Source of the DNA: an uncultured Gemmatimonadota bacterium | GTDB lineage: Bacteria; Blakebacterota; Blakebacteria; Blakebacterales; Blakebacteraceae | Length of the DNA stretch: 64,000 bases | Direction: 5' to 3' | NCBI GenBank assembly: GCA_964576115.1 | Contig: CAZNUA010000014.1 | Span: 1 to 64,000, forward strand | Shown: in pieces, positions 54,435 through 64,000 of the stretch | Position numbering within the stretch: the stretch's first letter is position 1 | How the letters are laid out: each line of letters starts with the position of its first letter | Made by a program: the position numbers and the translations under genes | The notes under the pieces: generated by a model | What the model was told of the DNA's origin: nothing | The model's database searches: none | What the model saw: the letters and a program-made list of their open reading frames with translations, nothing else

Positions 54435-56128
54435 AAGATCTGATCGAGTATGCCCGGGGGACATGGCCGGCAAAGATTCTGCTCACCAATGCCCGGGCCG
54501 TGAACGTCTTCACCGGCGAGATCGAGACCGCGAATATTGCCCTGGCCACGGGTTGGATCGTCGGAGTCGGCGATTATACCGAGGGCGAGGAGGTCATCGA
54601 CCTCGAGGGCGCCTATGTCTATCCCGCCCTGATCAACGGGCATATCCATCCCGAGAGTTCGATGCTGCACCCGGTCACGTACGCCGAAACGGTGGTTCCG
54701 CGCGGTGTGGGCGGCATCGTTACCGACCTGCACGAGATCGCCAATGTGGCCGGCCTGAAGGGCATCCGCTGGATGCTGGATGCCTGGAAATACCTGCCGC
54801 TCGAAGTGTACTTCATGGTTCCCTCCTGCGTTCCGGCCACCGACCTGGAAACCGCCGGGGCCCGGATCGGCAATCGCCAGATGATCGACGCCTACGGGTG
54901 GGATGAAACGACCGGTATCGGTGAAGTGATGAACTTCCCCGGTGTGATCAACTGTGTCGGCGACGTTCTCGGCAAGCTGTATCTCGGCAAAGGTACTATC
55001 GACGGGCACGCCCCCGGTCTGTCGGGACGGGATCTGAACGCCTACATCGCGGCCGGGATCGATTCCGATCATGAGTGCACTAGGCTCGAGGAAGCCCGCG
55101 AGAAGCTGGCCCGCGGGATGTATATCATGATCAGGGAGGGTTCATCGGAAAAGAACCTCGAGACGCTCCTCCCGCTGGTGAACGACGCCACCTGGCCTCG
55201 CTGCCTCTTCGTGGTGGATGACCGCAATTGCACCGATCTCGGAACCGACGGCGACATCGACGCCGTGGTGCGCACAGCGATCGAACTCGGTCTCGATCCG
55301 ATACGCGCCATCCAGATGGCGACCATCACTCCGGCCCGGCGCTTCCGGCTTTCCGGGCAGGGAGCGATCGCGCCCGGCTACTGCGCCCACCTGGCGGTGA
55401 CTCATGATCTGGAAACCCTGATCCCCCACCTGGTCTTCCACAGCGGCCGGGTGGTGGCACGTGACGGCGAAGCCTGTTTCCGGGAACTGCCCGAAGAGAT
55501 CGATGACGCTCCCATGCGCCGGTTCATGTCCGTGGCCCCCTTTACCGTCGAGGATCTGGCGATTCCGGCCGAGAACCGGTACCACCCCGTCATCGGTATC
55601 ATCCCGGGACAGATCGTGACCGAGAAACGCGAACTCGAGCCCCTGATCGAAAACGGGCAGGTGGTTCCCGATCTCGATCGCGACCTGCTGAAACTGATCG
55701 TCGTGGAACGCCACCAGGGAACCGGCAACATCGGCAAGGGACTGGTCCAGGGAGTGGGTCTGAAACGGGGCGCTCTGGCCACCTCGGTCGGGCATGACTC
55801 GCACAACATCATCGCCGTGGGAACCACCGATGCCGATCTGTATGCAGCCGTCAAGGAAGTCGAGCGTCTGGGCGGTGGGCTTGTGGCCATGGCCGACGGC
55901 GAACCGCTGGCCGCCCTGCCCCTGCCCCTGGCCGGCCTGCTCTCCGATCAACCGCTCGAAGTGGTCACCGATCAGCACAAGCAGGTCGAGGCCGCCGCCC
56001 GCGAGCTGGGCGCCGGTCTCGATGCACCCTTCGACACCCTGAGCTTCCTGGCTCTGCCGGTGATCCCCGAACTCAAACTCACCGACCGGGGCCTGGTGGA
56101 CGTGACCGCATTCCGGCTGCTTGATTGA
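54431..56128 (+). CDS. ade: Adenine deaminase
   Basis: GHIHPESS, GEVMNFPGV, DGHAP, SDHEC, IREGS, HDSHN, LPVIPELKLTDRGL. Confidence 0.95.
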   Translation: MKDLIEYARGTWPAKILLTNARAVNVFTGEIETANIALATGWIVGVGDYTEGEEVIDLEGAYVYPALINGHIHPESSMLHPVTYAETVVPRGVGGIVTDLHEIANVAGLKGIRWMLDAWKYLPLEVYFMVPSCVPATDLETAGARIGNRQMIDAYGWDETTGIGEVMNFPGVINCVGDVLGKLYLGKGTIDGHAPGLSGRDLNAYIAAGIDSDHECTRLEEAREKLARGMYIMIREGSSEKNLETLLPLVNDATWPRCLFVVDDRNCTDLGTDGDIDAVVRTAIELGLDPIRAIQMATITPARRFRLSGQGAIAPGYCAHLAVTHDLETLIPHLVFHSGRVVARDGEACFRELPEEIDDAPMRRFMSVAPFTVEDLAIPAENRYHPVIGIIPGQIVTEKRELEPLIENGQVVPDLDRDLLKLIVVERHQGTGNIGKGLVQGVGLKRGALATSVGHDSHNIIAVGTTDADLYAAVKEVERLGGGLVAMADGEPLAALPLPLAGLLSDQPLEVVTDQHKQVEAAARELGAGLDAPFDTLSFLALPVIPELKLTDRGLVDVTAFRLLD

Positions 56129-56141
56129 GGAGGCAACACGT

Positions 56142-56600
56142 ATGAACGTATTTGATGAATTCGATCGCCTTGTTCGAGATCTGGAAGAACAGGGGGTGAG
56201 GTATGCTCTCGTTGGAGGTGTTGCCGTGGCATTCTATACCGAACCACGTTTCACAAGGGATATCGACCTCCTTGTCGAACCGGATGACTTTGAAACAACC
56301 AGGATCATTCTCGAAACAGCAGGGTATTTCGAATCGTCGTCACCATGGACTTTCTCCAACACACTGATCACCCTCCACCGCTTCCTGAAAACAAGCGATG
56401 AGGGGGAGATGATGATCGACATCCTCCTGCCGGGTTCGGACGAAATCAGAGAGATGATATCTCATGCTGTCCTGGCTGAATCAGCCGAGGGTTCTGTCAG
56501 GCTGGTGAGCCGGGAGGATCTGATCCAACTCAAGAGAGCCCGTGGTTCGAAACAGGATCAAGCCGATATCGAAAAACTGGAGCAAACAGAGAATGATTGA
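56142..56600 (+). CDS. Minimal nucleotidyltransferase-fold protein (AbiEii/DUF6036-like)
   Basis: YALVGGVAV..PRFTRDIDLL, IDIL, EDLIQLK..KQDQADI; GAGGAGG RBS; less GC-rich than its neighbours. Confidence 0.78.
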   Translation: MNVFDEFDRLVRDLEEQGVRYALVGGVAVAFYTEPRFTRDIDLLVEPDDFETTRIILETAGYFESSSPWTFSNTLITLHRFLKTSDEGEMMIDILLPGSDEIREMISHAVLAESAEGSVRLVSREDLIQLKRARGSKQDQADIEKLEQTEND

Positions 56601-56724
56601 GATTCTTAAACAACTCAGCGACCTCTATGAATTCAACCGTCGTATCCAGGCTTACACAATCAAGGAGGATGAATCATCTGACGACGGGGAAGAACTTTCT
56701 GCTTCCGACCAGGATCGTCAGTGA
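56593..56724 (+). CDS. Small acidic hypothetical protein (43 aa), possible partner of the nucleotidyltransferase
   Basis: ATG overlaps the upstream stop by 8 bp; MIEILKQLSDLYEFNRRIQ followed by an acidic tail. Confidence 0.35.
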   Translation: MIEILKQLSDLYEFNRRIQAYTIKEDESSDDGEELSASDQDRQ

Positions 56725-56782
56725 TACATATCGTCTCGCAGCCCAGAACTGCTACGTTATACCCTGTTGAGAGGATATTCGT

Positions 56783-56823
56783 GCCGGGGTGGCGGAATTG
56801 GTAGACGCCGGGGACTTAAAATC
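56783..56823 (+). pseudogene. 5' half of tRNA-Leu(UAA), truncated just after the anticodon loop (att site)
   Basis: GCCGGGG-TG-GCGGAATTGGTAGACGC-C-GGGGA-CTTAAAA-TC, then GGG instead of CCC; no T-arm or 3' acceptor strand follows. Confidence 0.9.
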
Positions 56824-56853
56824 GGGCAGAGAGCTCTTTGCCCCTGATCGCTT

Positions 56854-56903
56854 GAGGCGGCCCGAGGCCCGTAGAATAAGGGTTTCGGGCCGCTTCTTGT
56901 TTC
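56854..56903 (+). terminator. Long hairpin with T-rich tail, terminator-like
   Basis: GAGGCGGCCCGAGGCCC / GGGTTTCGGGCCGCTTC (with G-U pairs), then TTGTTT. Confidence 0.55.
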
Positions 56904-56940
56904 GCCCGAGTTGTGCTATAATTGACCCTGTTTGCCCCTG

Positions 56941-56962
56941 TTTGGGACACATTTGGGGCACA
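56941..56962. repeat. Tandem 11-bp direct repeat TTTGGG(A/G)CACA, candidate integrase arm-type sites
   Basis: TTTGGGACACA + TTTGGGGCACA about 120 bp inside the att core. Confidence 0.6.
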
Positions 56963-57002
56963 TATTTGATATTTGAAGCTACCACTATCGACTGGAGATA
57001 CT

Positions 57003-57476
57003 GTGCCTGATCCCTTCGGCATTATCAATTCCGTTGTCTCATGGATATTGTCCATTATCGGCCTTCAGAGGAAGGAGCGTCCACACCCCGGAATTGATAT
57101 CAACTGGTGGGCACGTGACCAGAATTTCAATAAACGTGGAGATAGCGTTGTTGTTATCAGCCCGTACTTGTATGACGAACCGACAATAGGAGTTAAAGTA
57201 ACTGTTGAGAATTATGAACCGATCCCCTTCATCGTCGATGCAATTGAAGTTGAAGTATTTTCGATTGACGATCGATCGAACTGTGGTGGTGCTATCTGGC
57301 AAGGACCAAGGGAAGTGACGTTGACGAGATCTTGCCAAGAGGTTCTAGAAATCCCAACAAGAACATTTAATACCCCTCTCGACACTCTCCCACATGCCCA
57401 GAAAATACGGGGCATTGTACGAGTGTATATTGTTGGATTACGAAAGCCTATTGAGCGCCCATTACCTGTGGAGTGA
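57003..57476 (+). CDS. AT-rich cargo hypothetical protein, hydrophobic N-terminus, beta-rich
   Basis: GTG at 57003 after GGAG; 4-bp overlap with the next gene; no family recognised. Confidence 0.65.
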   Translation: MPDPFGIINSVVSWILSIIGLQRKERPHPGIDINWWARDQNFNKRGDSVVVISPYLYDEPTIGVKVTVENYEPIPFIVDAIEVEVFSIDDRSNCGGAIWQGPREVTLTRSCQEVLEIPTRTFNTPLDTLPHAQKIRGIVRVYIVGLRKPIERPLPVE

Positions 57477-58054
57477 CCGATATGTGGATTGAAATCATAG
57501 TAGCACTTATCGGATTACTTGGTGTTCTCATCGGAGCAGAAATATCCATACATTCACAGAAGATTCAGCGACGACAAGCCAGGTATCGGGAACAGCTGGA
57601 CCAGTTCTATTCACCAATGTTTGCCTGGAGGTCATTCATTGATGCAAAAGGTAGAACAAGGATAAAGATAAACGAGGCGGCTGATTCTACCTGGCGGGAT
57701 CTTGTCGCTCGATCGAGACCAAATATCGAACAGATGTATGAGTTGACTGAAGAGCGAGGCCCAGAATTTCAACGAATAGAGGACGAGACAAACCGAATAT
57801 TTAAAGAGGAGATATTCCCTCAATATCAAAAGATGGTTCAGCATTTTATTGATCATTATTCCTTAGCAGAACCAAGCACACAGACACACCTTATTACTCT
57901 TGTAGAGTTTGTAGAAATATGGGAAAGGTGGTTGCAGGAAACAATTCCCTGGGATGTAATGAGAAATATTAACAATAATGAAGAAAAATTACTCCCGTTT
58001 TACGAAGATCTTCAGACCCAATTGAATCGACTCCAGTGTAAATTGGTGAAGTAG
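57473..58054 (+). CDS. AT-rich cargo hypothetical protein with N-terminal TM helix and helical body
   Basis: IEIIVALIGLLGVLIGA TM segment; 193-aa open frame in AT-rich DNA. Confidence 0.75.
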   Translation: MTDMWIEIIVALIGLLGVLIGAEISIHSQKIQRRQARYREQLDQFYSPMFAWRSFIDAKGRTRIKINEAADSTWRDLVARSRPNIEQMYELTEERGPEFQRIEDETNRIFKEEIFPQYQKMVQHFIDHYSLAEPSTQTHLITLVEFVEIWERWLQETIPWDVMRNINNNEEKLLPFYEDLQTQLNRLQCKLVK

Positions 58055-58189
58055 TCTCTTCCAAGAAAGACGGCTCCTGCGCCCCGCCTCAGATCTTTTT
58101 CTTCTTTTCTGTTGTCCTGAGTTAGCCTGAGTTATATGCCCCGACTATTTTTCTTCCCTTCTGTCAGAGACCACCCGTAGTATGGCCGC

Positions 58190-58560
58190 AGAGCCCCGCA
58201 GAGGGTTTCCTGATTGTTGACATACAGGGACTGCGCCGAGGCCCTTCCTACCCTCTGCGGGATCCGCCTCGGCGCTATCCCGATCTTGTGTGTGGTACCT
58301 CGGTACTGCCGGCTACCCAAGCCGATCTCTCCGTCAGGATGCACAATGACGTGAGTTGATCCTGAGCGAGGCCGACCGTCAGGGCCTAATCTGACTGGAG
58401 CAGCAACGTCCCCCATCGAGACGCCCCTTCGATGCGAGCTCAGGACACAACGACCGCCCGCCGCCGGGGCGTTGAATCGGCGCGTCTATGGGAGCCTACC
58501 GCCAGGCTTAACAGGCGAGACCAGAGAACGACCAGGCAATCAACCTTGTTCTGGAGGTCT
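58190..58560 (+). ncRNA. Candidate structured leader/ncRNA upstream of xis
   Basis: TAGTAT -10-like box at 58178; multiple perfect complementary segments (12, 10, 8, 7 bp); no convincing ORF. Confidence 0.4.
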
Positions 58561-58564
58561 TCCT

Positions 58565-58768
58565 ATGGGCGCTTCAACTACCCTGGAATTACTCGATGCA
58601 GAGGAAGTTGCAAAACTCCTTCACGTCTCCCTCGCGACTATCCGCAGTTGGACCAGTGAGGGCCGGATCCCCTTCTACAGAGTTGGCGGCCGTGCTGTTC
58701 GGTACGGCCGGGCCGAGATCTTGGACTGGCTGCAGTCTCAGCGTGTCGCGCCGAAAGCAGCGTCATGA
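58565..58768 (+). CDS. Excisionase/AlpA-like HTH DNA-binding protein
   Basis: LLDAEEVAKLLHVSLATIRSW..GRIPFYRVGGRAVRY..EILDWL; GGAGGT RBS. Confidence 0.9.
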   Translation: MGASTTLELLDAEEVAKLLHVSLATIRSWTSEGRIPFYRVGGRAVRYGRAEILDWLQSQRVAPKAAS

Positions 58769-59058
58769 ATGGCGCGCGCAACCGCAGATACGGCACTGCA
58801 GCTGAGCGGCGCACCGTCGAACACTTCCGGTCCAAGGGATATGAGGCGTTCCGACTGGCGAAGGGGACCGCGTTCGACGTGCTGATATTCAATGGCCAGG
58901 CTGCGTATCTCTGCGAGGTAAAGGCGAGCGCACGAAAGCCGAGCCCGTCACGCTACAAGCCGTTCTGTGATCTGGTCGCGGAACCGCACTTCGGTAAATT
59001 GCTCGTATGGTGGCCACCGAACGCCCGGCAACCCGAGACCTGGGAAGTGCCGGGGTGA
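58765..59058 (+). CDS. PD-(D/E)XK nuclease, Hjc-type Holliday junction resolvase-like
   Basis: G.AAER..F..KGY.AFR....FDVL......LCEVKAS pattern in a 97-aa protein. Confidence 0.75.
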   Translation: MNGARNRRYGTAAERRTVEHFRSKGYEAFRLAKGTAFDVLIFNGQAAYLCEVKASARKPSPSRYKPFCDLVAEPHFGKLLVWWPPNARQPETWEVPG

Positions 59059-59225
59059 TGGCCGCTGAACAGACCGACCGCACGGCGAACGCGGAAGCTG
59101 AAGACTTCCGGGAGATCTTCGGCCGCACCCGTGACCGAACACCGGCATCACCCGATGAGGCGAGCGCCTGGATCCGATCGATCAGGAGACGGCTCGAGGA
59201 TCGGACCCGAGAGGAAGAGACGTGA
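59058..59225 (+). CDS. Small hypothetical protein
   Basis: Start and stop overlap both neighbours (translational coupling). Confidence 0.5.
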   Translation: MAAEQTDRTANAEAEDFREIFGRTRDRTPASPDEASAWIRSIRRRLEDRTREEET

Positions 59226-60778
59226 CAGCCTCAGCCCGGCAACCGGAAGAGATTGCCCTGGCGGCAGCGATCCGGTCTCCCCTGATCATATCCGCATCAG
59301 ACATCGATCTATTCAGCACAGATAATCGAGATCTCGCCACTATCCTGCATCGGGCACCACTGAACGGCAATGACCTGGACGGACGGCTGACGGCTCTCCG
59401 GGAACTCGGCGCCGATCCCGGCCGCCTGGCCGGACTGTGGGATCTCGGGAAGGATGACCTGATCCATGCCGAAGACGGAGAGCGAGCCCTCCAGGAACTC
59501 AGACATAATAGGCGGATAACCCAGCTGCACGCTCTCGGGAAAGAGTTATCCGGGGCTGCTCCTGATCGAGCCGAGGAGCTACTTCTAGAGCTGAGGGAGA
59601 TCGAAACCGCCGAGCAGGATAACAGCGGACCCCAGTGGCTCACGGCCGCCGAGCTCTCCGATGATGAGGTATCCGGTCCGGATTGGATTCTCAGCCCGCT
59701 CTTGGTCCGAGAGACGGTCACAGACCTGACCGCGAAGGTGAAGGTTGGCAAAACGCGTCTGGCCCAGGAGTGTGCCCGTTCTGTGCTGACCGGGGATCCG
59801 CTCTTCGGGCACAAATCTACCACAACCGGACCGGTCGTCTACCTAACCGAAGAACGCCGCCAGACCTTCCGGGAATCCCTACGCCGGGTCGGTATTCTCG
59901 GAAACCCTGATCTACACCTGCTCTTCCGACACTCTGCGCGGGGCATGTCCTGGCCTTCGATTGTGGCCGCGGTCGGAGCAAAGGCCCGGGAGATCGGCGC
60001 GGTCCTGCTGGTGGTGGATACCGTCTCGGACTGGGCTGGACTCGCTGCCGACGAGGAGAATGACGCCGGCGCTGCCCTGGCGGCCGTCAGACCACTACAC
60101 GCGGTTGCAGCCGAAGGTCTGGCCGTGCTCATGCTCCGCCACGATCGCAAGTCGGGCGGTGAGATTGGGGAATCCGGACGCGGGTCGTCAGCCTGGGCGG
60201 GTGCTGCTGACATCTTATGGAACCTGCGCCGGGCGAACGTGGAAGGACACCCGAACCGGCGGCACCTGGTAGGGGTTGGCCGCTTCGAGGATATCCCGGC
60301 TGAACTGCTGATCGAACTCAGAGACAGTGAATACGTCAACCTGGGCACAGCCGTCGATGTTGAGCGCCAGGAGGTGCGTGAAGCCGTTTTCGAGATCCTG
60401 CCTGGGCCCGAAGAGCAGGGGATATCCGAGACCGACCTCCTGGAGCGCCTGGGCGATAAGGGATCCAGAACTACTCTCCGCAGGGTGCTCGAAGAGCTGA
60501 TAAAGGGCGAATTGGTCATTAAAGAGCGGGGTGCAGGAAAAACCGGAAGGGCTTTCGGATATCGTCTCTCTAATGATGTGACCACCTATAGTATGACCCC
60601 TGGTCAGTTCAATACTGAACCTTCAGTACTTCAGGTCTCTGAAGATGACCTGATTAATGATGTGACCAGCCCCCGTACCCCTGGTCACATGGATAATAGT
60701 AATCCAACTGACCAGCCCCCCCCTCTATATGGTCACAACGATAAAGCGCAGGGGGATGACGATGACCTTCCGTTCTGA
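59222..60778 (+). CDS. RecA-fold replicative helicase (AAA_25/RepA-like) with C-terminal winged helix
   Basis: Walker A AKVKVGKT, VVYLTEE, Walker B LLVVDT, LRHDRK..GRGSSAWAGAAD. Confidence 0.85.
   Translation: MTASARQPEEIALAAAIRSPLIISASDIDLFSTDNRDLATILHRAPLNGNDLDGRLTALRELGADPGRLAGLWDLGKDDLIHAEDGERALQELRHNRRITQLHALGKELSGAAPDRAEELLLELREIETAEQDNSGPQWLTAAELSDDEVSGPDWILSPLLVRETVTDLTAKVKVGKTRLAQECARSVLTGDPLFGHKSTTTGPVVYLTEERRQTFRESLRRVGILGNPDLHLLFRHSARGMSWPSIVAAVGAKAREIGAVLLVVDTVSDWAGLAADEENDAGAALAAVRPLHAVAAEGLAVLMLRHDRKSGGEIGESGRGSSAWAGAADILWNLRRANVEGHPNRRHLVGVGRFEDIPAELLIELRDSEYVNLGTAVDVERQEVREAVFEILPGPEEQGISETDLLERLGDKGSRTTLRRVLEELIKGELVIKERGAGKTGRAFGYRLSNDVTTYSMTPGQFNTEPSVLQVSEDDLINDVTSPRTPGHMDNSNPTDQPPPLYGHNDKAQGDDDDLPF
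60571..60737. repeat. Iteron-like array: three TGACCA..TGGTCA inverted pairs, candidate replication origin
   Basis: TAATGATGTGACCA at 60571 and 60655; ACCCCTGGTCA at 60596 and 60677; third pair at 60709/60730; AT-richer spacers. Confidence 0.65.
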
Positions 60779-60934
60779 TCCTCTCAGCCTCTCAGGGTGT
60801 CCCTTCCTGAATGCTCTCAAAGCTGAAACCGGGGATTCTCCGGGGGCGCTTCGAACGAGCAGTCCGCAGCCTGTCGGCGTCTTCTCTATGTTCCTGAACC
60901 GTTTGTGTCCCGCCCGTGTCCCGGGGGGCCTCCG

Positions 60935-61447
60935 ATGAGTCCGAAGGGAACGAATCCTAACTCCCTCGCAAACCTGCGCCAGACGGGCAATCTCACCGTT
61001 CACGGCTGGTGGTCCAAGGGCATACAGACAACCGGTATACCGACTCGGGGCGGGTGTCCGCTTCGCCTGCTCGGGAACTGTGACTGTGAGATCCCCGATA
61101 CCGAGCAATGCCCGATCATGCTGGAGCAATTCGTAGCCCGCGTGATCGAGCTTCAGGAGATCGGTCTGAGCAAGCAGGGAGCGGAGCTGATAACCCGGAT
61201 GGAGTTCCAATCTCTTCTCGGGCATTACGTCCTAGACCGACAGGGAGCGTTCAGGCGGGACGGTGACGACTCAGCACCGATGAAAGCTCATCGGGTGTGG
61301 GTATCCGTCGGTACCGTCGATCACGCCCTGGAGCGGCTGTACAAGGCTGCGGGGATCCTGAGGACTCAGGACCTTTCGGCCCCGAGCCTGGAGGAATACC
61401 TGGCGAAGATGTCCCGGGTAGAGATTGAGGATGATGAGGAGTGTTGA
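60935..61447 (+). CDS. Putative terminase small subunit (Cys-rich)
   Basis: Directly upstream of and overlapping terL; N-terminal NPNSLANL..GN..HG; four clustered Cys. Assignment mostly positional. Confidence 0.55.
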   Translation: MSPKGTNPNSLANLRQTGNLTVHGWWSKGIQTTGIPTRGGCPLRLLGNCDCEIPDTEQCPIMLEQFVARVIELQEIGLSKQGAELITRMEFQSLLGHYVLDRQGAFRRDGDDSAPMKAHRVWVSVGTVDHALERLYKAAGILRTQDLSAPSLEEYLAKMSRVEIEDDEEC

Positions 61448-62933
61448 TGCAAAGATGCAATCCATAAAGAAACAAAGGGCTCACGTCGATGCCGTGACTT
61501 TCGCGACGGATCCGCAACTGCTCGGGCTGACGCTCTCACCGGCTCAGGAAGTGGTGATCAGGGCGGCATACGGTCTCCCGATCGAGGGGGACCTGGTCAG
61601 CGTGTACTACGAGATCACCGGACGCCTGGACTGGCGCACCCGGACCGAGCCGGTGCATGACCTGACGGTGATCGGGGGGCGTCGGGGAGGGAAGGATTCC
61701 CGGATTATCACGGCGATTGCGGCATATGAGGCTTTCTGTGGCGGGCATGAGGCACACCTGGCACCGGGTGAGGAAGGCGTGGTGCTGGTGGTCTCTCAGG
61801 TGATCCGACGGGCCCGACAGGCGGCTTTCAGCCTGATACGCGGAGCTATCTTCAATTCCCCGATGTTGCGTAAGAAGGTGATCTCGGATCGGGCCTGGGA
61901 TCTCGGGCTGGACAACGGCCTGGTGATCAGGTGTGAGCCCTGCAGCTTCCGGAGCATCCGGGGATCAGCCGTGCCGGTGGCGCTCTTCGATGAGGCGGCT
62001 TTCTGGTCGTATGAGGGACACAACCCGGACCGTGAAGTAGAGCGGGCGGTACGGCCGGCAATGGCGCAATTCCCGGGCTGGAAGCTGGTGAAGGTATCGA
62101 CCCCGTGGATCCGGGCCGGGCTGCTCTTCGAGGACTACGAGAAGCACTACGGCGCCGATGAGGATCCGCACCTGGTCATGCAGGCCTCCACGTGGATCCT
62201 GAATCCGACCATTCCGCAGTCATTCCTCGATCAGGAACGCCGGAAGGATCCGGAGACCTTCGAGCGGGAGTACGGGGCACGGTTCAGCGATCGGGAGGCA
62301 TTGTGGCTTCCACATGATTCGATTGAGGCATGCCGTCAGGAGTGGACCGCCCGAAGTCTACCGGAGTATCCCCGGCCCCGGGCTGTTGCCGTGATCGATC
62401 CGGCGTACAAGCGGGATAGGTTCGCGGCCGCGATCGGCTGGTACGAGAAGGGCAAGGATGAGATTCCCGGGCGGGTTGTGATCGGCCGGCTGGAAGGCTG
62501 GACGCCTCCCCGGGGCGGTGAGCTCTCCCTGAATGCCGTTCTCGATCAGCTCTGTCCGATTCTCGGGCAGTACGACGTGCGGAAGGTTCATGGAGATCAG
62601 TACACGGCCGCACCTGTTCGGGAGGCTCTGCGGGCTCGAGGATTCGCTTTCGAGGAACACCCCTTCTCGGCCCCGTTCAAGGCCGAGATCTACTCCGATT
62701 TGAAATCCCTGGTGATCGAGGAACGCATTGACCTCCCGGATCATGACCGGGGGATCTCCGAGCTCAAATCCCTGCACGTGACCCACACCCCGGCCGGGAC
62801 TATGCGAATCGGAGCACCTGAGCGGGCCGGATACCACGACGACTACGCAACCGTCATTGCCCTGGCCGCTCACCTGGTCTTTTCCGAGACACAGACGCTC
62901 TGCACACGTGGCGGGCAAATGGTCGATATCTAG
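61431..62933 (+). CDS. Terminase large subunit
   Basis: LSPAQ, Walker A GGRRGGKDS, Walker B ALFDEAAF, VSTP, FEREYGARF, nuclease IDPA..D and HDD; exact start uncertain. Confidence 0.88.
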   Translation: MMRSVDAKMQSIKKQRAHVDAVTFATDPQLLGLTLSPAQEVVIRAAYGLPIEGDLVSVYYEITGRLDWRTRTEPVHDLTVIGGRRGGKDSRIITAIAAYEAFCGGHEAHLAPGEEGVVLVVSQVIRRARQAAFSLIRGAIFNSPMLRKKVISDRAWDLGLDNGLVIRCEPCSFRSIRGSAVPVALFDEAAFWSYEGHNPDREVERAVRPAMAQFPGWKLVKVSTPWIRAGLLFEDYEKHYGADEDPHLVMQASTWILNPTIPQSFLDQERRKDPETFEREYGARFSDREALWLPHDSIEACRQEWTARSLPEYPRPRAVAVIDPAYKRDRFAAAIGWYEKGKDEIPGRVVIGRLEGWTPPRGGELSLNAVLDQLCPILGQYDVRKVHGDQYTAAPVREALRARGFAFEEHPFSAPFKAEIYSDLKSLVIEERIDLPDHDRGISELKSLHVTHTPAGTMRIGAPERAGYHDDYATVIALAAHLVFSETQTLCTRGGQMVDI

Positions 62934-62942
62934 GAGACAGTC

Positions 62943-63290
62943 ATGCAGACACACACACCTGCACGGGAAGCCGAGAGCCGGGTGAGGACGGCCGGGAACT
63001 GGCAACGCCGGCTGTCCGAGCTCACGGCCGAGTACCGCCAGGCTGACGCCCGGGCCCGGTGCCTGCTCTCTCACGCCGTCCGGGCTCTCGGGGAGTTGAA
63101 AGCAGCTGCTGAGGCACCCGTACGGGAGGCCCCGCGCTACTACCGGCAATCCCGGCCCCTGCCTTTCGAGCCGTCCCTGATCATCGAGGAATTTCTGGAC
63201 GCACTCCGGCTGCAGGGGATCGATCTACACACCGAAACAATCACAACGATTGGAGATGATGAAGATGGTGGCACCACGGACGAGTTATGA
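62943..63290 (+). CDS. Hypothetical protein (element gene)
   Basis: AGGAG RBS; helical, 115 aa; no family recognised. Confidence 0.6.
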   Translation: MQTHTPAREAESRVRTAGNWQRRLSELTAEYRQADARARCLLSHAVRALGELKAAAEAPVREAPRYYRQSRPLPFEPSLIIEEFLDALRLQGIDLHTETITTIGDDEDGGTTDEL

Positions 63291-64000
63291 CAGAGACGAG
63301 CTGGTCACGGCTGACGGCCTGTTCCACTTCCACCCGGATCTTGAGGGTCAGGATCTGCAGGCTCAGCTGGCGTACCGGGCGAAGGAACTGCAGTCGATCA
63401 TCGATGAGACCCGGAAGAGGCATCACGTGATCCGCGGTCAGATCCGGCACACCGAACAGGAGAAAATGACCGCGATCGCGGAGCTCATGGGAGAAGTTGC
63501 CGGCGACGTGAGAAGCCGGATCCGGGATCTGCTCGGCCTGGACGCGTTCGAGAAACACACCTCACTGCTTCGCGAACTCCGCTCCCCCGATCGACACCTG
63601 GACCTGCCGCCTCAGTTCAAACATGAGAAGCAGACCGGCACGATGGAACGTGAGATCCGCGACGAGGTCCGCAAGCTGCCCGAGATGGATATCCGCGGCA
63701 CGCTCTATGAGGCCGTCAATGATGATGACCGGATCACGCTGCGTGCTTTCCGGTTCTGTCCTCCCCGGTTCCCGCTGGTGAAGACCGAGGACCTGGAAGA
63801 CGCCATGGAGAAGCACTCCCGCCGGCTGTTCCCCGAGCAGTGGGGGCTCTGTGACAGCCTGGGGCATCTCTGGAGTCTGTGCCGGACCAACTTCGAGCAG
63901 TTCTGCTCGATCCTGTTCGCCCTGGCCGGTCCCGGTGGTGATGCGATCATGGCCCAGCTGCGGGTTGAATCGTTCCTGCCCGAGAGTGTGACGACCGAGC
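63265..64000 (+). CDS. Hypothetical helical protein, runs off window
   Basis: Not in the ORF track; open frame MVAPRTSYDRDELVTADGLFHFHPDLEGQDLQAQLAYRAKELQ... to the window end; GGAG upstream. Confidence 0.7.
   Translation, partial: MVAPRTSYDRDELVTADGLFHFHPDLEGQDLQAQLAYRAKELQSIIDETRKRHHVIRGQIRHTEQEKMTAIAELMGEVAGDVRSRIRDLLGLDAFEKHTSLLRELRSPDRHLDLPPQFKHEKQTGTMEREIRDEVRKLPEMDIRGTLYEAVNDDDRITLRAFRFCPPRFPLVKTEDLEDAMEKHSRRLFPEQWGLCDSLGHLWSLCRTNFEQFCSILFALAGPGGDAIMAQLRVESFLPESVTTE

Follow-up and report, generated by a model that had tools for sequence, protein, structure and literature searches.

A displaced 5' part of tRNA-Leu(UAA) as the probable left border of an integrative element with reversed tRNA polarity

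Systems that resemble the locus described here reportedly include an element from Mesorhizobium loti (Zhao & Williams 2002). The Islander catalogue, according to the accessible part of its description, contains 3919 islands, 159 with a 5' tDNA fragment versus 3760 with a 3' fragment, and its configuration filter expects exactly the layout with the 5' fragment upstream (PMC4383910). Since that portion of the source documents such islands as a catalogued minority class, the layout is less novel than the original prediction for this locus had assumed (PMC4383910). In Thermococcales (archaea), the pTN3-like integrases of TKV4-type elements use the 5' half of a tRNA gene as attB and restore an intact tRNA downstream of the integrase gene, where it is said to be expressed from the integrase promoter; the available portion of the text calls the 5'-half attB situation 'seldomly encountered in bacteria' (PMC8371274).

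We analyzed a stretch of 64,000 nucleotides (the window), which is the first 64000 bases of the 71298-base contig C14 from an uncultured Gemmatimonadota bacterium; positions on the contig keep the window numbering. The left border comprises the following features.

56718..56782, + strand: host-side stretch preceding the displaced 5' part; identity to the stretch preceding the complete tRNA is about 59%
56783..56823, + strand: probable displaced host tRNA-Leu(UAA) 5' part, positions 1-41, left junction (attL core); 40/41 identity to the complete gene
56824..56843, no strand: near-palindrome of 20 bp with an 8-bp stem, the first element-specific sequence past the crossover region
56854..56905, + strand: terminator-like hairpin (17-bp stem) and U-run, from fold energy versus shuffles
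56941..56967, + strand: tandem 11-nt repeats GGGACACAT / GGGGCACAT, putative left arm (Tandem Repeats Finder, period 11), 161 and 172 nt from the fragment start

The 41-nt fragment consists of the acceptor stem, the D arm, the anticodon stem and the loop CTTAAAA of tRNA-Leu(UAA), and it diverges from the tRNA sequence 2 nt past the anticodon loop, i.e. 2 nt into the 3' strand of the anticodon stem. A whole-genome blastn search places the fragment above chance (97.7% identity over 43 nt, E 3e-15). No complete tRNA was found in the 64,000-nt window by ARAGORN or Rfam, and a pattern search for the missing 3' half gave 0 matches in the window; this half sits past the window end. The near-palindrome folds into an 8-bp stem with a 4-nt loop (-12 kcal/mol, z -3.3; 2/200 shuffles equally good). 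The hairpin proper (56854-56896) has a 17-bp stem and a 9-nt loop followed by UUCUUGUUU (-39 kcal/mol, z -6.2; 0/200 shuffles equally good); it was not reported by a simple terminator scan because the loop rule of the scan is 3-8 nt. Tandem Repeats Finder detected repeats of period 10 at 56922-56944, period 11 at 56941-56963, and period 7 at 56962-76. Thus the tRNA 5' half that stops 2 nt past the anticodon loop, the palindrome, the terminator-like hairpin and the tandem 11-bp repeats, all reported in the original prediction for 56783-56962, are confirmed at those places, and so is the remark that no integrase adjoins the border, the nearest one beginning at 67440, 10.6 kb off.

The counterpart of this border lies just past the window end, where both a complete tRNA gene and an integrase gene were found, as the original prediction had proposed to check.

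56824..64000, + strand: portion of the proposed element inside the window; it continues past the window to about contig position 68640
67440-68579, + strand: tyrosine integrase, 379 aa (PF00589 1.1e-31; phrog_1 2.5e-72)
68527-68550, + strand: putative right-arm tandem GGGACACAT x2, 73 and 62 nt ahead of the complete tRNA
68600-68686 of C14, + strand: complete tRNA-Leu(UAA) (ARAGORN; RF00005 55.8 bits, full length)

The complete gene follows the fragment at a distance of 11817 nt, on the same contig and the same + strand; it scores 55.8 bits in its full-length match to RF00005 versus a gathering score of 29, and is the sole tRNA-Leu(UAA) among the 47 tRNAs detected by ARAGORN in the 144-contig assembly. 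It is identical to the fragment at 40 of 41 positions, with a T/C difference at position 16. The stop codon of the integrase gene lies 20 nt ahead of it. The integrase matches PF00589 with 110.4 bits versus a curated cut-off of 27.1; its ORF is intact and its catalytic set R208 K233 H296 R299 H322 Y331 is complete, R208, K233, R299, H322 and Y331 being invariant and H296 conserved in at least 90% of the 16 aligned sequences. The direct repeat shared by both ends, which includes the tRNA part, is 106 nt long (D1; 74% identity overall). The fragment covers tRNA positions 1-41, i.e. it is an end fragment rather than an internal one, and lies upstream of the complete gene; the identity block ends at the anticodon stem-loop, as in the anticodon-loop sublocation (Williams class A). 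The arrangement follows the Islander layout: a tDNA and a cognate 5' end fragment are co-oriented, the integrase is inside, and the 11.8-kb interval falls within 2-200 kb. The original prediction had envisaged a decayed relic for the case that neither a 3' half nor an integrase lay downstream; both were found.

The complete tRNA and the integrase downstream therefore point to an integrative element that carries its own copy of the tRNA 5' part. We assign a probability of about 0.9 to the reading in which an 11.8-kb integrative element, from 56824 to about 68640, carries a tRNA 5' part, entered by reversed integration and has the 41-nt piece as its attL. The repeat, the integrase, the intact tRNA, the geometry of the repeats and the recurrence in relatives are direct observations. 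The mechanism proposed from them has the following steps: (i) the tyrosine integrase would recombine at the anticodon stem-loop of the tRNA-Leu(UAA) gene, with a predicted crossover inside the 7-nt anticodon loop, (ii) the attachment site of the element, in contrast to that of most elements that target tRNA genes, would consist of the tRNA 5' part (1-41) and some 65-75 nt upstream of it, and would follow the integrase gene directly, (iii) integration would have displaced the host 5' part, presumably with its promoter, to the far end, and (iv) a complete tRNA would have been rebuilt at the integrase end from the element 5' part and the host 3' part. The difference at position 16 fits two copies of separate origin and a crossover 3' of this position. 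The left arm would combine two candidate arm-type repeats with the hairpin at 56854-56905, which we infer to be a putative stop for transcripts begun upstream of the orphaned tRNA part, i.e. at the orphaned promoter. The suggestion that the element supplies a replacement 5' half at its far end is borne out by the complete tRNA-Leu(UAA) and the integrase downstream. The broader label of a reversed or disruptive tRNA integration holds in its first part; the second part fails on the complete gene at the other end.

The repeats on the two arms have a third counterpart within the element.

60899..60922, - strand: third GGGACAC pair, inverted, in an intergenic gap inside the element (motif search; inverted repeat I11)

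The paired motif GGGACAC-few bases-GGGRCAC occurs four times on both strands of the 3.96-Mb genome, and three of these pairs are inside the element: at 56944 (161 nt from the fragment start), at 60905 (inverted), and at 68527 (73 nt upstream of the tRNA). The exact 9-mer GGGACACAT is present three times in the 12.1-kb span versus 0.07 occurrences expected from its genome frequency. As in an attP of the lambda type, short repeated motifs are found on both arms at a fixed distance from the core and are unlike the core; the GGGRCAC repeats spaced by 11 nt are thus probably arm-type binding sites of the integrase, as judged from motif and position. Similar pairs were observed in relatives of the integrase. 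A perfect 8-mer pair spaced by 10-12 nt is present in 29 of the 57 loci with a tRNA past the 3' end of the integrase gene. The spacing is 11 nt in 24 of these 29, and most pairs lie 64-98 nt away from the edge of the tRNA; 100 rounds of shuffling gave a mean of 0.61 and a maximum of 3. A GGACAC pair is found in seven reversed elements at tRNAs of six different anticodons, and is therefore read as element-borne.

Comparison with related integrases revealed how the two polarities are distributed. The closest protein outside the query's own cluster is 68% identical, the remaining ones at most 42%, and the best foreign match in a phylum-wide integrase search (10 genomes) is 33% identical. A single-protein query against genome contigs detected no relative of the integrase, and an alignment query was needed; the alignment-based scan of these contigs yielded 80 integrase loci with 28-41% identity from many bacterial phyla and some archaea. 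The polarity of each locus was scored by a tRNA within 1 kb of the integrase match. By this measure, 24 of the 80 loci are reversed, with a co-oriented tRNA just past the integrase 3' end and the tRNA 5' end facing the integrase; 34 are classical by adjacency (33 with a convergent and one with an upstream tRNA), and 22 have no tRNA. Ten of the first 13 loci listed are reversed. The reversed share among relatives with an adjacent tRNA, 24/58 versus roughly 4% in Islander, comes from a sample chosen by similarity to the query integrase and does not estimate a population frequency.

Ten reversed loci have 7 kb or more of upstream sequence available, and in three of them an orphan 5' part was found upstream of the integrase, namely in L049 (positions 1-38), L051 (1-43) and L080 (1-40; a tRNA-Leu(UAA)); the other seven showed none within the available flank. 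With the same length available, 4 of 13 classical loci have an orphan 3' part starting at positions 31-35. Since the 3' parts start at 31-35 and the 5' parts end at 38-43, the segment shared by both is the anticodon stem-loop. Three loci (L045, L050, L060) are reversed by adjacency, yet have 3' parts downstream of the tRNA; these carry a second, classical insertion on the other side of the tRNA. L049, L051 and L080 each have a tandem motif of their own, at +168 to +170 relative to the fragment and -72 to -95 relative to the tRNA, and in L049 and L051 these motifs are the only copies in the locus. The three loci have the integrase and the att design in common, not the cargo. L049 carries a carbamoyltransferase and an SxtJ-like ORF; L051 a prim-pol/DUF5906 protein, a small-terminase-like protein and SpoVG; L080 a radical SAM protein, a rolling-circle Rep (Phage_CRI) and an HTH_17 protein.

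A further case was observed in G016, a genome from the 'same domain'. One of its contigs contains an orphan 39-nt 5' part of tRNA-Leu(UAA). The best integrase homolog (28% identity, E 3e-27) is encoded on another contig, where its gene immediately precedes a complete tRNA-Leu(UAA). The two copies are near-identical over about 82 nt ahead of the tRNA, a stretch that includes a TATAAT box, and a tandem GGGCACAATTT pair is found 171 nt from the start of the fragment and 287 nt ahead of the gene. The four related reversed elements (G016, L049, L051, L080) repeat the design of the query. Two of the four candidate 5' fragments in relatives were false: that on contig C421 of G001 is a tRNA-Leu(CAA) cut by the contig end, and that on contig C352 of G015 is a complete tRNA partly masked by N.

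A quick maximum-likelihood tree was built from 77 integrases, i.e. the 80 loci without five (three with a stop in the ORF extension and two shorter than 200 aa) and with the query and G016 added. Polarity is clustered on this tree, as 0 of 500 label shuffles need as few changes, and it does not follow one clade: the starred branches force at least 4 changes, and parsimony gives 10 changes between reversed and classical. The query integrase is located on a long, poorly resolved branch.

Several solitary tRNA pieces were noted during this survey. In a genome of the same family (G003), locus L020 on contig C62 has a decayed orphan tRNA-Leu(UAA) 5' part at 965-1004 with a mutated anticodon loop. 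In L032 (G003:C3:70000-86946) and L031 (G005:C104:1-20000), tRNA-Leu(UAA) is followed by five and three orphan 3' pieces, respectively, of 25-33 nt and 93-97% identity within 3-10 kb, which looks like a classical integration hot spot with tandem remnants. In the query genome (G000), an orphan 3' end of tRNA-Leu(UAA) of about 30 nt (T arm and acceptor) is present at 1976-2005 of the 17-kb contig C62, which contains no relative of the C14 integrase; this piece was probably displaced by a separate classical insertion, and the assembly would have lost the link of that insertion to C14. ARAGORN also reported 'tRNAs' of 90-99 nt in this genome, on contigs C9 (Asp(atc)), C39 and C43 (Arg(tcg)), C50 (Arg(gcg)), C51 (Pro(cgg)) and C78 (Pro(tgg)); they are probably false positives because their flanks are unlike those of other tRNA genes.

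Between its borders, the element encodes the following proteins apart from the integrase.

56973..58054, + strand: two low-GC ORFs of 167 and 193 aa (41-45% GC), cargo without a significant family match
58472..58768, + strand: HTH_17 / excisionase-like DNA-binding protein (PF12728 1.4e-14; phrog_66 'excisionase and transcriptional regulator' 5e-11)
59222..60778, + strand: AAA_25 ATPase, primase/helicase-like (PF13481 2.5e-20; phrog_906 DNA polymerase/primase 1e-12)
61425..62933, + strand: terminase-large-subunit-like protein, a weak match (phrog_2 2.8e-16)
64937-66256, - strand: defence-like ABC ATPase (PADLOC NsnB 3e-44; PF13304/PF13175)

The first two ORFs gave one weak DUF1427 match below the cut-off, and GC content drops to 41-45% at 57000-58000 versus about 60% around. 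The AAA_25 ATPase is a probable replication protein, judging by its domain matches. The terminase-like protein has no Pfam match and no match in a PDB sequence search. The ABC ATPase, NsnB/AriA-like, belongs to a three-gene minus-strand cassette (contig positions 64497-67022) that resembles defence cargo and has a foreign composition. The left flank encodes an adenine deaminase and a nucleotidyltransferase, the right flank a MacB/FtsX permease, and by gene content both look like host DNA. In the relative G005, an adenine deaminase homolog shares a contig with tRNA-Leu(UAA) and lies upstream of it, which supports the left side as host DNA; five normal-GC ORFs separate the two genes there, and no 5' fragment is present. 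At 56121-56770, in a GC dip just left of the fragment, the nucleotidyltransferase gene (DUF2204/NTP_transf_5, with a weak AbiEii likeness) overlaps the end of the adenine deaminase gene and is followed by an ORF of 57-60 aa; the two ORFs could form a pair of the toxin-antitoxin type or be left over from an earlier element.

The sequences upstream of the two tRNA copies are themselves related. The host-side stretch 56718-56782 contains a degenerate copy of the arm motif, GTGATACAT, opposite GGGACACAT of the element side, and a register alignment gives 17/20 identities at -60..-41. The host-side sequence thus resembles the element side, and the 'host' copy may therefore itself descend from an earlier element, a descent that may blur the assignment of this flank to host or element. 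Many tRNA genes of the genome have a promoter of the form TTGACR-N17-TAnnTT. The tRNA-Leu(UAA) on the element side has a weak -10-like TAAGTT box 17 nt before the gene and lacks a TTGAC box; a consensus scan for sigma-70-type promoters found none on the tRNA strand upstream of either copy, its sole match being on the opposite strand. Transcription of the rebuilt tRNA may proceed by read-through from the integrase gene or from a weak internal promoter, which are equally good candidates; the proposal of the original prediction that the tRNA is under element control is plausible. In L080, TTGAC and TAAAAT/TAATAT boxes are kept in both copies while the spacer has diverged, and in G016 the promoter lies within the repeat; these relatives therefore do bring a promoter. 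In G005 and G003, a GGGACAC-type pair and a TGTAAnTT box are located upstream of tRNA-Leu(UAA), no integrase is present there, and divergently oriented genes adjoin; the tandem pair lies at -73 of the resident tRNA (L008 at about 1641-1660 in G005; L005 in G003). We give somewhat less than even odds to an origin of these resident upstream regions from earlier reversed insertions, of which they would be relics.

The alternative that survives best shares the origin proposed above and holds that the island has become fixed: it would be a remnant that no longer moves, and its right arm would permanently provide the upstream region of the tRNA. We regard it as unlikely. In its favor, no excision product or empty site was seen. 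For the circular junction and the empty site that the original prediction had proposed to look for, the assembled contigs of four runs (possibly the source sample) contain neither an excised circle nor a restored site. A single 'skip 11842' joint in one run (side of 21 nt, 23 foreign letters, depth 102) was rejected as the tRNA of another organism, and a 'goes back 50' joint lies inside the tRNA. Searches with the left and right flanks found no empty site in five relatives, which are too diverged: adenine deaminase is present in four of the five, the G003 copy shares its contig only with orphan 3' pieces, the right flank gives weak scattered matches only, and in G001, of the same genus and 83% complete, neither flank adjoins a Leu(UAA) gene. 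The pair and box that G005 and G003 retain without an integrase indicate that such arms can persist without the element, and G003 also has the decayed orphan 5' part. A fixed island is, however, at odds with the intact integrase ORF and its six catalytic residues, with the good preservation of both arm-site pairs including three exact GGGACACAT copies, with the open excisionase-like and replication genes, and with a repeat that differs at just 1 of 41 positions.

One joint reading of these observations, less likely than not, can be put forward tentatively. The polarity of the attP tRNA segment would flip often in this integrase family because the anticodon stem-loop core is symmetric; reversed elements would repeatedly overwrite the tRNA 5' half and the promoter region; G005 and G003 would have kept the element arm permanently; and the element described here would control how the sole tRNA for TTA is transcribed, a codon ten times more frequent in its own cargo than in the host.

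Returning to the reversed integration with a rebuilt gene, two further alternatives bear on whether the tRNA is broken at all, and both are very improbable. According to the first, integration was disruptive and split tRNA-Leu(UAA), so that UUA decoding would be off until excision in the manner of bldA, the tRNA-Leu(UAA)-based control in Streptomyces. The window alone shows only a 5' half, and TTA is rare in the host ORFs of the contig (18/19017 codons in the rest of the contig versus 34/3692 in the element, in a heuristic ORF set). Against this stands the complete, canonical tRNA-Leu(UAA) at the other end of the element, in the integrated state, so that excision would merely restore the host version; the split gene of the original prediction is thereby contradicted. 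The bldA-like translational switch that it had suggested loses its support too, since the gene is rebuilt rather than split. Moreover, the element genes use TTA ten times more and would therefore suffer most from a missing tRNA. Of the 34 TTA codons of the element, 22 are in the cassette at 64497-67022 (22 in 791 codons) and none in the integrase gene. This usage goes with the low GC content of the cargo and does not speak for regulation; the TTA-rich cargo would nevertheless depend on the tRNA-Leu(UAA) gene that the element occupies.

According to the second, which has just as small a chance, the border is an artefact of assembling the genome from a metagenome, with a chimeric join at 56823. 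Assembly graphs break at tRNA sequences, which different organisms have in common; no single Logan contig bridges the right junction, and depth is inflated there. The left junction, on the other side, is crossed with zero differences by a 3202-nt Logan contig (contig positions 56768-59969) in 4/4 runs, which are possibly the source data. This second assembly shows no misassembly at 56823, the fault that the original prediction had named as fatal to it; the Logan evidence represents a second assembler and not independent data, because the runs may be the source of the assembly. The design of fragment, arm sites, integrase and tRNA is also reproduced in other genomes. Separately, the Logan contigs of all four runs contain a minority variant at 56652-56748, which makes up roughly a third of the word depth and carries 7 substitutions in the 100 nt immediately preceding the fragment, and the main junction contig starts at 56768; a second strain may differ at the left border.

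Least probable of all is an interruption of the tRNA by a group I intron, or a split gene, of the kind found for cyanobacterial tRNA-Leu(UAA): this tRNA gene is a classic host of group I introns and the break falls at the anticodon loop, yet no Rfam family reaches the gathering threshold within the window, a permissive scan (E up to 1) of 1.65 kb around and after the fragment gave one sub-threshold snoRNA match only, and the 3' part is 11.8 kb away, joined to a complete 5' part of its own.

With reversed integration as the preferred reading, an apparently broken essential tRNA gene is resolved as an ordinary, minority integration layout. Island finders and annotators that expect a 3' fragment beside the integrase will misread such borders. 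In this group of integrases, the putative arm sites keep a fixed distance whichever direction the tRNA takes. The locus may be of interest for integrase/attB mining and for the study of tRNA promoter replacement. The layout is uncommon and already documented, and the present locus is a further case in a sparsely sampled phylum.

With the bldA system of Streptomyces the locus shares the rare codon and its tRNA in a GC-rich genome, and the TTA-rich element cargo would likewise depend on this tRNA; it differs in that the gene is intact in the integrated state, and a regulated tRNA supply finds no support. Classical anticodon-loop elements (Williams 2002 class A; P4/lambda-style attP), as far as the accessible parts of their descriptions go, have in common with it a tyrosine integrase, a core at the anticodon stem-loop, an integrase gene that adjoins attP, and tandem arm-type repeats on both arms. 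In contrast to them, the tRNA segment of attP would be reversed here, so that the 5' part and its upstream sequence are brought in, and the host promoter would be orphaned, whereas in classical elements a 3' fragment is displaced. The pTN3-like elements, in the portion of the source available, have the same 5'-half attB and the same intact tRNA restored downstream of the integrase gene, a likeness that is functional only, and the host here is a bacterium (PMC8371274). A further match is provided by the 5'-fragment islands of Islander, which in the accessible part of that source have a complete tDNA, a co-oriented upstream 5' fragment with the integrase between them, an anticodon-centred site and a length of 2-200 kb (PMC4383910); the element described here differs from them by a new host lineage, whose phylum is represented by 10 genomes in the collection, and by a new integrase.
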